Shown here: piece after piece, positions 16,524-19,994 of the stretch
Layout of the letters: each line of letters starts with the position of its first letter
Numbering within the stretch: position 1 is the stretch's first letter
Assembly: GCF_003991155.1 (NCBI RefSeq)
Contig: NZ_CP031293.1
DNA from: Escherichia coli
Lineage (GTDB): Bacteria; Pseudomonadota; Gammaproteobacteria; Enterobacterales; Enterobacteriaceae
Length of the DNA stretch: 64,000 nt
Direction: 5' to 3' (one strand)
The notes under the pieces: model-generated
What the model saw: the letters and a program-made list of their open reading frames with translations, nothing else
What the model was told of the DNA's origin: nothing
Database searches by the model: none
Program-made: the position numbers and the translations under genes

Positions 16524-16719
16524 GCTTCACCTCCGCAGAGGTCAAACGCTGGATGCAAAAAATCGCAGGTGCATCTCTGCATCTGTGAAGGGAGAAGAGA
16601 GTTTGGATTGTATGTGCGCATAAACGTCCCCGTTTAGCGCAGAAGTCACCGGAGTTGTTCAGGCTCCGATGACATGATTATGGCAAAATGATTATGTAAA
16701 ATCAAAAGCCAAAAAACAA

Positions 16720-17664
16720 TTATGGTTTATTTTCTAGCTCTGATTTTTTGAAAGCTTCTATCAGACGATTAGCATCTTCTGTACCACCAGGAAGCACGTT
16801 TGATTTTTTAAGAATATACGGTGGGAACTTTGTGGTTAAATATTCATGCTTAAACCATCTACGAAACTCTGACAATGCAGAATCAGGATAGGCATTAATG
16901 ATCTGAGGATTGGAACTTGCCTGAAGAAAATCTTCAGGGTAATAATGCTCACAGTCTACTCTTTCTCCAAATTCTGTTGCTAACCCCTTTGCTTTCCAGT
17001 GACGCGCCCAGCAAGAACCAACACTGCCATCAGGTACGGTATGCTGATTAATCGCTAATCCAGCATTGATGAGATCTACCATCATACCTGCAATTTCATT
17101 AAATATAATGAAATACCCATCAGGTATGGTTCCCTTATCTTTTAATAAAGATACTCTGTCATGGTAATGCCTCCACGGGTCCTCCGGTTGATATTTTAGC
17201 GCCTCGTATATAAATGTCTTGAGGCCTTTTTTAGCAAGCTCTCTGTAAGATCTAATTGCAGTCTCACTTTCTGCTTGTTTTGCTTCAAAGGCATAGTATT
17301 CAAGTATAGCCATGCATACAACATCTGGATAAGCATGGTACTCAACACCATTTCGAATTATTGGTATATAAAGTTTTTCATCTGTAAAACCTTCATTAAG
17401 AAGATATGTACCAATAAAAGTCATTCTTCCTTTTTTGAAAATACCGTTCTCAACAGATTGAGCCCACTCATCGGTAATTTCCTTGATTCGCAAACGCTGA
17501 ACACCACAAACATTTGCCAACCCATTCTGAGTAAGGTACGGAATTCCGTTATCGAGTACCCCCATTTCTATACCGTTAATGACAGCCTCTTGCTTAACAT
17601 CTAAGTCTAAAGGTATGGATCTGAGGGAGGTAGTTCTCTGTTGTGCCATTTTTGATCCTATCAA
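16720..17664 (-). CDS. AT-rich nin-region protein of unknown function (314 aa)
   Basis: Long ORF in AT-rich segment with consistent codon usage; no family recognised; occupies the position of K-12 ybcL/ybcM but does not resemble them. Confidence 0.6.
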   Translation of the reverse strand: MIGSKMAQQRTTSLRSIPLDLDVKQEAVINGIEMGVLDNGIPYLTQNGLANVCGVQRLRIKEITDEWAQSVENGIFKKGRMTFIGTYLLNEGFTDEKLYIPIIRNGVEYHAYPDVVCMAILEYYAFEAKQAESETAIRSYRELAKKGLKTFIYEALKYQPEDPWRHYHDRVSLLKDKGTIPDGYFIIFNEIAGMMVDLINAGLAINQHTVPDGSVGSCWARHWKAKGLATEFGERVDCEHYYPEDFLQASSNPQIINAYPDSALSEFRRWFKHEYLTTKFPPYILKKSNVLPGGTEDANRLIEAFKKSELENKP

Positions 17665-17853
17665 TTTGAATTCATTGAAAAAATTAGGTGTTCCCTATGC
17701 ATTAGAACACTCATCATAGTAACCCCACTCGTTTGTGAAAAAAACTAATTTCACAATCAGTTAACTCTCAAAATAACTGATATTCATACTCTCGCTATCC
17801 CATATATAGACATCCTTGTTTTAATACAACACTCATGGCTGGCGGCTATACTC

Positions 17854-18171
17854 CTAACAGATTTGACGCAAATACGGCAATACTCGACTCCACTTATCAT
17901 CCTGCCACGGCTGAAGTTTTACATGTGCCGTTTCTCGGACGAGGATTGCTCGCGCTCTGTTGAGTATCTGGGGATATTCTTGCTCGATGGAAGTGAAGTG
18001 ACCAGCTTCACCATGCTCCGCATCCTGAAGAAGATGAGTAACGTTCTGGTAGGCAATTAACATCACATTCCCTGCTCGCCATAACCAGGCGAGTGTGCAA
18101 AGTTCGTTATCAGTGAATTGTTTTGTGATTGGGGATTGTTGAACTGCTAGAACGAGAACGCCAGCATCCAT
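17854..18171 (-). CDS. Hypothetical protein (105 aa)
   Basis: ORF between the 314-aa gene and the recombinase; no recognisable motif; could be a gene remnant. Confidence 0.35.
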   Translation of the reverse strand: MDAGVLVLAVQQSPITKQFTDNELCTLAWLWRAGNVMLIAYQNVTHLLQDAEHGEAGHFTSIEQEYPQILNRARAILVRETAHVKLQPWQDDKWSRVLPYLRQIC

Positions 18172-18282
18172 TGGCAGTCCCTATAGTAAAACCATAGCTC
18201 AGGACGCTTCGTTCAGGATAGATAATTTTATTGTACTTACCTAACTTTCTTACTATAGCACGGTTGAAAAAGTGATTATTAC

Positions 18283-19809
18283 TCAAAAATAAACCTCACC
18301 ATCAACCATATATTTGAGAGTACTTATCGCCTGCTGGGCGGATATTGTTTTCATTAAAGGATAGTGTTTAAAAACAATGCCATTCATAAAATAGATATCA
18401 CAGGTTTTATTATCTGTATTGATTATGATTTTTTCGAATGTTTTATAGGCAAGTGTACGACATAGCTCTCGCCCATTTTTACTGGTTAAGTCAATAGCAT
18501 GAAAATCACCAAGTGAGCTCACCGCTTTACTCTTCAAAGTTTTTAATGATACAGAAGCCCTTCGTAATTCCTTATCTAATACTCTGATTTTTTCTGCTAT
18601 AGCGGTAACTTCAGGCGCAACAGATAATGCAGCAATTAAATTATTAATTTTCATCTGGAGCTCAATAATTTTCAACTCTAAAGTTTCATTAGCATCTTTC
18701 TTGTTTTCAACTGGTTGGATTTTACTACAATTAAAAAGCAACTCATTAATGATATTATAATCAACCAAATCTCTCTTTATTGATGGCCTGTCACATCGAT
18801 GCAGTCTTCTCATCGGACAAACATAATAGCCATGCAAACTTCCAGATACCGCATGAACAATCATGGTATTACCACAAGCCTCGCACTTCATAACTGTTCG
18901 AAGTAGATTTATCAACATAGGATTTTTGCTACTATTGCTAATACCAAAAGGTGCCAACCGAATTTCCTGCACAGCGTAAAACAAATCATCTGATATGACT
19001 CTGGGATAATAGCCAGCGATTTCACTTATTCCTTTACCTCTTGCACGATATGAAGGTACGCATATACCTATCAGAGCTTTATTCGCTAATAATTTTTCAA
19101 TTACAGAAGGTCCCCATGCACTTTCTTTTCCTGAGAAATTCTTTACAGCATGATCATTTAAATACTTGGCTATTGCATTCAATGAGCGCCTTTCCATCCT
19201 GAGTTTAAAAATTAGCTCAATAGTTTTCACCCTGTCGGGGTCTGGAACAAAAGCCGTTCTTTTGTCATCTAAGGAGAGCCATCTCGGACAAGACGCCGTC
19301 ATAATCGTGCCTGACTCCAGTGCATCCTGCCGTTTTTTCTTCCATGATAATTTAACCCGACTTGACTTTATCTCGCTTTCTTCATTTGCCCTTTGTGCTA
19401 TAAGTATGGCTTTTATTAATGAATATGGATCATTCAAAGAGTCAATATTATAGACTGTATTATCGCAAAGAGTTATAACATCAATACCGTGATTCAAAAT
19501 CAATTTCAGACGCTCAATCGCTTCACCGACTTTTTCTCTTGAAAGTCTGTCCAGACTTTCAACTAACAATGTAGTTCCTGGCAATATATAACCATGCTCT
19601 ATAGCATCTAAAAATTCCGAAAAAGCTCCTGATTGTGCATGCTTTCCTTTGAATGCACTTAATCCTAAATCTTCATATGTTATGGTATCAAGATAATAAT
19701 CACTATTTACCTTTAACCATTCAGCAATAAGTCTTCTCTGTCGGTTTAATGAGTCGCCAGACATCTGACCTGGTGATGAAAATCGCATATATGCTATGGC
19801 TTTTTTCAT
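18283..19809 (-). CDS. ybcK: Large serine recombinase (DLP12 YbcK-like)
   Basis: 508 aa; N-terminal resolvase-type catalytic region (AIAYMRFSSPGQMSGDSLNRQ), cysteine cluster CEACGN...YYVCP...HRCD, C-terminal coiled-coil; AT-rich. Confidence 0.85.
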   Translation of the reverse strand: MKKAIAYMRFSSPGQMSGDSLNRQRRLIAEWLKVNSDYYLDTITYEDLGLSAFKGKHAQSGAFSEFLDAIEHGYILPGTTLLVESLDRLSREKVGEAIERLKLILNHGIDVITLCDNTVYNIDSLNDPYSLIKAILIAQRANEESEIKSSRVKLSWKKKRQDALESGTIMTASCPRWLSLDDKRTAFVPDPDRVKTIELIFKLRMERRSLNAIAKYLNDHAVKNFSGKESAWGPSVIEKLLANKALIGICVPSYRARGKGISEIAGYYPRVISDDLFYAVQEIRLAPFGISNSSKNPMLINLLRTVMKCEACGNTMIVHAVSGSLHGYYVCPMRRLHRCDRPSIKRDLVDYNIINELLFNCSKIQPVENKKDANETLELKIIELQMKINNLIAALSVAPEVTAIAEKIRVLDKELRRASVSLKTLKSKAVSSLGDFHAIDLTSKNGRELCRTLAYKTFEKIIINTDNKTCDIYFMNGIVFKHYPLMKTISAQQAISTLKYMVDGEVYF

Positions 19810-19994
19810 GGTGACACCTGCTAACGTATGCTTTTATAAACCTTAGTGGTGAGATATAATTTTTGTTTAATTTTTATTTAAAAAGACAATTAAGGTCACA
19901 TTATCTTGAATATACAACAATAATCGTATTGCAATTTTCTTACGCCATAATCTTGAAAGCACAAAAGAATACATAAAAAAATAAAGACATTAAC

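Follow-up and report, generated by a model that had tools for sequence, protein, structure and literature searches.

A putative BstA-family gene in a recurrent cargo slot beside the serine recombinase gene ybcK of a DLP12-type Escherichia coli prophage

Why does a lambdoid prophage that has its own tyrosine integrase also carry a large serine recombinase among its nin genes, and what are the genes that lie beside it? This question is raised by a stretch of 64,000 nucleotides of Escherichia coli (contig NZ_CP031293.1, assembly GCF_003991155.1), which is called the window here; all coordinates are positions in it, and all genome counts refer to 5426 complete E. coli genomes. Within the window, an AT-rich accessory block of about 3.8 kb (about 16707-20500, minus strand), flanked by ren and ylcH-ybcN, is located in the nin region of a prophage, and all genes between 16 and 21 kb are on the minus strand. 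A previous reading made from the letters alone (the sequence-only reading) described open reading frames (ORFs) of 508, 105 and 314 codons between ybcN and emrE, the first a large serine recombinase and the other two unknown genes in place of ybcL and ybcM of strain K-12. It further took the recombinase as a hint of a nested element, integrative or invertible, or of a recombinase-controlled switch for the adjacent cargo. The sizes, strand and positions of the three ORFs agree with our coordinates, the K-12 comparison confirms the replacement of ybcL/ybcM, and the block is indeed AT-rich: its GC content is 0.31-0.41 over most of 16.6-20.4 kb, with a local peak of 0.46 at the 105-aa ORF, while the sequence on either side has 0.49-0.55. 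The explanation that we prefer, with a probability of roughly 0.8, is that a bstA cassette occupies a cargo hotspot of lambdoid phages and that YbcK is a passenger in a block built as a three-layer mosaic.

The two genes that had seemed unknown both belong to described families. The 314-aa protein matched the PADLOC BstA model PDLC02356 (3.8e-121, profile positions 5-291 of 292) and phrog_6287, "BstA abortive infection system, replication inhibitor" (1.9e-136), and the identical protein is labelled "BstA C-terminal domain-containing protein" in RefSeq. Further BLASTP results showed a full-length alignment with BstA of the Salmonella prophage BTP1, which has been characterised by experiment, at 40% identity (residues 3-308 versus 4-305, E 5e-77). 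This alignment spans both halves of the two-domain build described for BstA, a KilA-N-like DNA-binding region followed by the BstA domain, and a PADLOC helix-turn-helix model was found on residues 30-155 (2.1e-8). The ORF is open from a TTG at 17664, which gives the 314 aa (16720-17664). With family matches of E 1e-69 to 1e-136, bstA and the 105-aa ORF are real genes and not chance ORFs. The bstA cassette is present in 108 genomes, at least 99% identical in all of them and in diverse hosts, which adds a BstA homologue for about 2% of complete E. coli genomes. Given these matches, and its place within a prophage with a full gene set, the 314-aa ORF is predicted to encode a prophage-borne abortive-infection protein of the BstA family, in line with the previous suggestion of an accessory defence gene.

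Owen et al. 2021 described BstA as an abortive-infection protein encoded by prophages, which localises to the DNA of foreign phages during its replication (PMC8585504). Homologues just ~40-48% identical to BTP1 BstA were active when tested, and every bstA locus has its own anti-BstA DNA element, named aba, which is homologue-specific; in BTP1 it consists of 63 bp across the start codon with terminal CCCGCC repeats, and shields the prophage in its own lytic growth (PMC8585504). By analogy with the characterised proteins, the lysogen would make BstA, and when a foreign phage starts to replicate its DNA, BstA would move to that DNA, replication would be blocked and the infection aborted, with protection of the population. 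Upon induction of the prophage itself, BstA would be turned off by an aba located at the 5' end of its own gene, the copies of which would multiply as the phage genome replicates. At this locus, the activity, the expression in the lysogen and the aba are all expected from homology. We also considered whether the window protein is BstA^Ec, the E. coli homologue tested in that study, and rejected this, as the gene lengths differ (930 versus 897 bp) and the accession is absent from the supplements of PMC8585504.

The 105-aa ORF matched phrog_7640 (1.7e-69) and several Ant anti-repressor PHROGs, via the P22AR C-terminal domain. In two O157-like prophages (L005 and L006), the homologous gene has 202 codons and matches Ant families over its full length (phrog_245 at 9.6e-56 in L005), and the window ORF corresponds to residues ~100-202 of the 202-aa L005 Ant. 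Since the homology to L005 ends at 18170, exactly at the start codon of the 105-aa ORF, this ORF is the C-terminal half of ant. Both its start codon and its AGGGA ribosome-binding site are supplied by the 111-bp spacer behind ybcK, and dN/dS among the truncated ant copies is 0.3-0.6, much more relaxed than in ybcK; the ORF is probably a remnant. The spacer itself is common to loci L003 and L004 and to phages Turner and Perceval and is absent from L005, while K-12 has just 39 bp of it and the O157 form 66 bp. A 9-bp inverted repeat in this spacer (CTATAGTAA/TTACTATAG) was considered as a recombination site and dropped, being degenerate in K-12 and Perceval.

The limits of the variable part were determined by pairwise BLAST of window positions 16000-21000 against nine other loci. 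The slot that holds bstA measures ~1.16 kb (16707-17865), so that the variable cassette proposed relative to K-12 is now bounded by comparison with K-12 DLP12 and other prophages. Its right breakpoint, just past the bstA stop, falls at 16705-16707 in eight of the nine loci and at 16724 in L005; the left breakpoints and the cargo found in each locus are listed in Table 1. Both junctions, namely the final codons of ant and position 16706, are common to four unrelated cargos: bstA, a gene of 260 aa, one of 118 aa, and a HEPN gene with its 133-aa partner. The K-12 version with ybcL/ybcM (at least 99% identity) is present in about 674 genomes, and the slot varies also in the L005/L006 prophages, which do not have ybcK. 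The slot is thus a recurrent cargo hotspot with fixed flanks and alternative cargos. At the other end, the accessory block starts within the last ~13 codons of ren (about 20497-20505), and L009, a prophage without the island, is homologous to the window again from 20497. A literature search, which was not exhaustive, found no paper describing this nin-region slot or a nin-region serine recombinase.

As to the other cargos, the 260-aa gene is located at L003 3187-3969, the 118-aa gene at L004 3182-3538, and the HEPN gene and its overlapping partner at L005 3216-4012. The 260-aa product has a weak HNH-like match, and the HEPN protein a weak match to PADLOC PDC-M28A (1.8e-7; a candidate model). 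PADLOC, NCBIfam and PHROGs gave no functional assignment for the 260-aa, 118-aa and 133-aa products. By their position, the 260-aa, the 118-aa and the HEPN-pair cargos are candidate defence or toxin-antitoxin genes.

The recombinase was assigned correctly as a phiC31-type protein of the K-12 YbcK kind, additional to the tyrosine integrase of the prophage. Three Pfam domains were found, Resolvase (PF00239, 1.3e-18, residues 4-161), Recombinase (PF07508, 4.6e-14, residues 191-284) and Zn_ribbon_recom (PF13408, 1.8e-7, residues 302-357), together with a match to the integrase family phrog_95 (2.2e-120). The NCBIfam XisF model scored 48 bits against a cutoff of 375, and a phmmer search against PDB sequences gave no matches, the similarity to solved structures being too low. 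The translation contains AYMRFSS (with Ser11) and LDRLSR, which match the catalytic Y-x-R-x-S and D-R-x-x-R motifs of resolvases such as gamma-delta resolvase, and four cysteines arranged as C-x2-C...C-x7-C; a heptad-like stretch at ~375-440 suggests a coiled coil. The gene is 96.8-97% identical to K-12 ybcK at the DNA level. Among six copies, including those of the cryptic K-12 DLP12 and of sequenced phages, dN/dS was 0.04-0.09 in 15 of 15 pairs, and 1397 of the copies in 1423 genomes (26%) are full length. YbcK is intact and under purifying selection, and is not decaying. The sequence-only reading had named, as what would speak against it, a recombinase that is inactive or is a fixed ancestral part without repeats; ybcK is in fact a fixed part of this phage lineage, found in K-12 and in sequenced lambdoid phages, and the search described below found no repeats, whereas the intact motifs and the low dN/dS do not fit an inactive gene. 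It had also named a match of the 314-aa protein to a known nin-region gene, and this protein does match a known family, BstA.

The gene is 98% identical in the lambdoid phages Perceval, Turner, 4A7, Lambda_4C10, D2 and the PhiR phages, and the order is always ren-emrE-ybcK. The emrE-ybcK module occurs also in an icd-integrated prophage that has a different tyrosine integrase. In the window, ybcK is internal to the prophage, between ren/emrE and the nin genes, and not at an element edge. The variant sites of ybcK are arranged in blocks: the window, L003 and L004 are alike in the 3' half, K-12 and Turner have another pattern, and L003 and Perceval have a 5' pattern in common, which indicates recombination within the gene between phage lineages. 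Many genomes without ybcK have, elsewhere on the chromosome, a solitary emrE copy that is ~92% identical (about 418 bp), so that emrE occurs in prophages, as a passenger, and also at a locus without ybcK.

Does YbcK move or flip anything here? The repeat search that had been proposed near the recombinase gave, for 15900-21000 (seed 8, minimum 14 nt), chance-level matches only, and no inverted repeat of at least 28 nt was found in the whole 64-kb window. The 3' flank of ybcK contained no att-like palindrome (the best imperfect palindrome was 52% complementary) and no 9-mer in common with the 3' flanks of six homologues, and Rfam gave nothing over 11-25 kb. Attachment sites of large serine recombinases can be too short and imperfect for detection, and these negatives are therefore absence of evidence, not proof that YbcK is inactive. 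The genome comparison bears on the same question. A synthetic query joining ren to the truncated ant, as in an empty site, was found in 0 of the 5426 genomes. Orientation variants were not found either, since in 1369 genomes, to be compared with the 1397 full-length copies of ybcK, the ybcN...Q side and the ant/ybcK/emrE side, taken with long flanks, are collinear and on a single strand, and 106 of the 108 bstA loci are collinear over 16000-20600 (4.6 kb). The missing 5' half of ant is not found beyond the module, where the gap between ren and emrE is just ~68 bp, so that the module is not a simple insertion, and the ybcK-proximal breakpoints fall at no fewer than five different positions, not at one crossover site. 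A tie between YbcK and the cargo is not supported by these results; the recombinase behaves as a conserved, selectively maintained passenger, with no sign of moving or flipping DNA. Among the top matches, some copies of the bstA locus carry IS3 insertions.

Full-length homologues of YbcK with 41-61% identity occur across Enterobacterales. In four of the six contexts examined (P0009, P0014, P0021 and P0024), the gene stands at the very end of a prophage, after tail-fibre assembly genes: in Atlantibacter (60%, adjoining smpB), Yersinia (56%), Erwinia (52%, near lepA) and Ewingella (50%). One homologue is in a plasmid or in a context like that of integrative and conjugative elements, and one, from Pantoea (42%), is in a nin-like prophage position as here. 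Given that its relatives occupy the position of a working integrase, YbcK is best described as an integrase-derived recombinase kept internally by the phage lineage, and an unstudied K-12 gene can thereby be described as such a recombinase under strong purifying selection.

These findings leave some room for a YbcK that still works as a recombinase. Its substrate would be outside the window or unrecognisable by sequence, and it might serve as a second integrase that opens another chromosomal site to the phage, or might have phage or competitor DNA as its target in lytic growth, with bstA as unrelated cargo. This alternative is compatible with our explanation of bstA and differs just in giving YbcK an active role. 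The intact catalytic motifs and domains, the constraint on the gene and its full length in nearly all copies speak for it, as do the closest relatives outside E. coli with their integrase position and the recurrence of the nin-like placement in Pantoea. On the other hand, in none of the genomes was ybcK at a prophage/host junction or rearranged, no excised form accompanied the collinear loci, the 3' flank has nothing att-like in common with the relatives, and a literature search, confined to one searchable library, found no publication assigning an activity to ybcK. We regard a working YbcK as possible, at clearly less than even odds.

Our preferred explanation, a bstA cassette in a hotspot with YbcK as passenger, must also meet several points that weigh against it. 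The BstA assignment was made at 40% identity to BTP1 BstA, and the protein is not the tested BstA^Ec (298 aa). Pfam-A found no significant domain in the 314-aa protein, including no KilA-N, and NCBIfam had no match for it or for the 105-aa protein, which explains why the former could not be recognised by eye; in the original study, too, BstA's KilA-N-like domain at the N-terminus needed remote-homology methods (PMC8585504). The gene is not beside the prophage repressor, which is the characteristic BstA position, although this position is frequent and not universal in the family (PMC8585504). It is located ~5.7 kb from the cI-like S24 peptidase gene (about 23369-24124) in the pR-distal nin region, with cro, cII-like, O, P, ren, emrE, ybcK and the truncated ant in between, and expression in the lysogen therefore needs a promoter of its own. 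The promoter-like site found upstream is weak (9 of 12 matches), and the promoter scan was overall at chance level. A repeat scan that recovers the BTP1 repeats found no aba-like terminal direct repeats around the bstA start codon, and upstream of the gene it returned a low-complexity TTTTTTCA pair at chance level. The window does not contain the CCCGCC...CCCGCC pattern of BTP1, as is expected of homologue-specific elements; the putative aba position in Table 1 follows the BTP1 layout (PMC8585504). In addition, the right junction of unrelated cargos agrees to 1-2 nt, tighter than simple illegitimate recombination predicts, and is explained just partly by the conserved promoter-like element that starts there. 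Finally, the strong purifying selection on YbcK means that it does something, and that role is absent from our account.

Some of these points would also fit a bstA homologue that is a silent or decaying passenger and gives no defence in this host. The cassette is AT-rich, likely H-NS-silenced DNA, it is far from the repressor promoter with a weak promoter match of its own, and another defence locus of the same prophage, described below, looks truncated. Against decay, the intact ORF spans the family profile at full length, it is nearly invariant in 108 genomes of diverse hosts, and BstA homologues of similar divergence were active when tested (PMC8585504). We consider a silent bstA unlikely.

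YbcK-type recombinases, which derive from prophage integrases, might alternatively be kept under strong selection in the nin region for acting at the adjacent hotspot, by capture or exchange of cargo at a cryptic site near the 3' end of ybcK and the 16706 junction, or as a second integrase or an anti-competitor recombinase. If true, these phage-internal serine recombinases would form a functional class that is new and is linked to the turnover of defence genes; we hold this to be quite improbable. Still a little less credit is due to the proposal of a nested integrative element made up of emrE-ybcK, alone or together with the downstream genes, which YbcK inserted into the nin region or into ant and can excise. 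Such an element would account for the AT-rich block, for the cut of ant exactly where the ybcK-linked spacer begins, for prophages without the module (L009, a form found in 110 genomes, and L005/L006), and for a recombinase whose 3' end faces the element boundary in its relatives, as here. Its left edge, however, lies within the coding sequence of ren, no terminal repeats or att-like sites were found, and the gene order of the module is the same in free phages and in prophages integrated at two different sites; with the 5' half of ant missing from the far side and ren joined to the truncated ant in none of the genomes, the nested element is largely refuted by the absence of empty sites. Least probable of all is an invertase or cassette-exchange recombinase that would control or diversify the cargo next to it, either by a phase-variable switch or by integron-like capture at a site just 3' of ybcK, even though cargo variation begins 0-420 bp from the ybcK stop, the distal junction is so exact and an att site would be expected downstream of the recombinase gene in the prophage-end relatives, at the same relative position as the slot: prophages without ybcK have the same slot and the same two junctions with different cargo, the proximal breakpoints scatter, no inverted repeats flank the cargo, one orientation is seen in all 106-108 bstA loci and in 1369 of ~1400 ybcK loci, and the distal junction is the start of a conserved promoter-like and hairpin element that selection alone could fix.

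This element, upstream of ylcH, is where the cargo variants rejoin the window, at its upstream edge. The promoter scan found a promoter-like TTGATT-17-CATAAT with an extended -10 at 16705..16677, followed by a hairpin at 16645-16673 with a 10-bp stem and a second hairpin over the ylcH start codon. The promoter-like site and both hairpins are invariant in five aligned loci, and a fold of seven sequences gave 21 pairs with one compensatory pair. The element may be a promoter/terminator (tR2-like) control element of the nin region. In L005 (O157-like, NZ_CP074951.1), a 138-bp second copy with 91% identity (5337-5474 versus ~3040-3180) is found upstream of the full-length ant. The unit of ant and HEPN cargo is therefore flanked by direct repeats, which hints at how the ant and cargo unit was inserted or is exchanged.

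Returning to the mosaic of bstA cassette and YbcK passenger, three layers can be proposed. The first would be emrE-ylcJ-ybcK with the 111-bp spacer, a fixed unit of the phage lineage, whose YbcK would descend from prophage integrases and, having no detectable substrate sites, defines no mobile or invertible unit here. The second would be the 5'-truncated ant, left from an older arrangement of ant and cargo, and the third the ~1.16-kb cassette with bstA. For the history of the block we infer the following order: a unit of ant and cargo may have stood upstream of ylcH; the emrE-ybcK-spacer module would then have replaced the 5' part of this unit; and cargos would have been swapped among lambdoid phages by homologous recombination in the conserved flanks, likely not by YbcK.

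The surrounding prophage was described with the help of L001, an identical locus with RefSeq annotation, and the sequence is 100% identical in ~100 complete E. coli chromosomes. L001 has a full lambdoid gene set: terminase, head-tail joining, lysis, Q, nin, P, O, cII-like, cro, cI-like, gam/bet/exo and intD. With tRNA-Arg(tct), that is argU, at 30547-30623, the host element is a lambdoid prophage of the DLP12 type that is integrated at argU and is apparently complete. The features of the locus are collected in Table 1.

Table 1 Features of the accessory block and its flanks, and left breakpoints of the cargo slot in other loci (window coordinates)
Feature	Position	Strand	Basis or remark
ren (Ren-like exclusion protein)	20466..20768	-	phrog_142 5.9e-41; RefSeq "protein ren"; conserved left flank
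emrE, SMR multidrug efflux transporter, 110 aa from ATG	20066..20398	-	NCBIfam SMR_efflux_EmrE 239.9 bits, cutoff 226; RefSeq
ylcJ, frameshifted	19867..20017	-	RefSeq annotation of the identical L001 sequence (12868-13018, "frameshifted"), converted to window coordinates
ybcK, 508-aa large serine recombinase	18283..19809	-	Pfam, PHROG, dN/dS, motifs
Spacer, 111 bp	18172..18282	-	travels with ybcK
5'-truncated gene of Ant anti-repressor type, 105 aa	17854..18171	-	phrog_7640, L005 comparison
Exchangeable cargo cassette	16707..17865	-	breakpoints against nine other loci; from last codons of truncated ant to just past bstA stop
Putative bstA, 309 aa from ATG at 17649 (RefSeq start)	16720..17649	-	PADLOC, PHROG, BTP1 BstA alignment, RefSeq
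bstA upstream and 5' region	17616..17741	-	weak promoter-like site 17741..17713; positional equivalent of BTP1 aba 17678..17616
Conserved boundary element upstream of ylcH	16600..16706	-	alignments, fold, promoter scan
ylcH	16520-16621	-	conserved right flank; RefSeq
ybcN/ninB	16068-16523	-	NCBIfam PRK09741 277.6 bits; phrog_72 NinB/Orf; RefSeq
Left breakpoint, L003	17856		260-aa phrog_6544 gene
Left breakpoint, L004 and phage Turner	17866		118-aa phrog_12412 gene
Left breakpoint, L005	17866		HEPN protein and 133-aa partner; prophage without emrE, ybcK, ren
Left breakpoint, phage Perceval and L020	17998		alpha/beta hydrolase, opposite strand
Left breakpoint, icd-integrated O157:H7 prophage	18217		nearly empty; 37-bp ant remnant
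Left breakpoint, K-12	18244		ybcL/ybcM
Left breakpoint, L009	20497		two small ORFs, no emrE-ybcK; form in 110 genomes

A second AT-rich island of the same prophage (12307-14698, plus strand, GC ~0.33-0.37) lies between Q (14678-15088) and the holin gene (11689-12015), and gives matches to both genes of DS-1, a curated anti-phage system reported in the DefensePredictor paper (PMC13092281). DS1_1, a nucleoid-associated YejK-like protein, scored 349 bits (cutoff 330) and DS1_2 scored 375 bits (cutoff 315); PADLOC 2023, scanned with DS1_2, has no model for it. The DS1_1 ORF (12307-13170, 287 aa) covers profile positions 3-277 of 369 only and is followed by small ORFs, so it looks C-terminally truncated or frameshifted, and DS-1 may be inactive here. 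Downstream of the lysis genes, the prophage also carries iss/bor, encoding a serum-survival lipoprotein (region 10378-10719, L001 3425-3718), which is a known lambdoid moron.

Current understanding is not overturned by these findings. The nin-region position of bstA, not described for the family, raises the question of how the lysogen expresses the gene and of where to find its self-immunity element, and the sharply bounded slot could be mined in DLP12-type prophages for further defence genes.

Four known systems can be compared with this locus. BTP1 BstA, with BstA^Ec and BstA^Kp (PMC8585504), resembles the window protein in its 40% full-length alignment, its length, its probable two-part architecture and its encoding in a prophage. 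The BTP1 gene is directly downstream of the repressor, whereas the window bstA follows ybcK and the truncated ant in the nin region and has neither the BTP1 aba sequence nor its CCCGCC repeats. YbcK resembles the integrases of phiC31, Bxb1, A118/LI and the SPbeta SprA type in having Resolvase, Recombinase and zinc-ribbon domains followed by a coiled-coil-like C-terminal extension. It differs from the large serine integrases in being internal, beside the tyrosine integrase of its prophage, with no att sites, empty sites or rearrangements found. K-12 DLP12 (emrE-ylcJ-ybcK-ybcL-ybcM-ylcH-ybcN) has in common with the window the argU site, the gene order, emrE-ylcJ-ybcK (about 97% at the DNA level) and the ylcH-ybcN flank. 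Its sequence departs from that of the window 39 bp past the ybcK stop and returns to it at 16707, with ybcL/ybcM instead of the truncated ant and bstA, and is heavily degraded, whereas the window prophage looks complete. Lastly, the slot is like the P2/P4 defence hotspots (Rousset et al. 2022, PMC9122126) and the lambdoid cI-N region (rexAB or bstA) in its fixed flanks and its alternative, unrelated, AT-rich cargos, which include a recognised defence gene and a HEPN-domain protein. It differs from them in its place in the nin region, with ant (or ybcK) on one side and ylcH-ninB on the other, in that ybcL/ybcM and the alpha/beta hydrolase are not obviously defence genes, and in that bstA is the sole cargo matching a characterised defence family.

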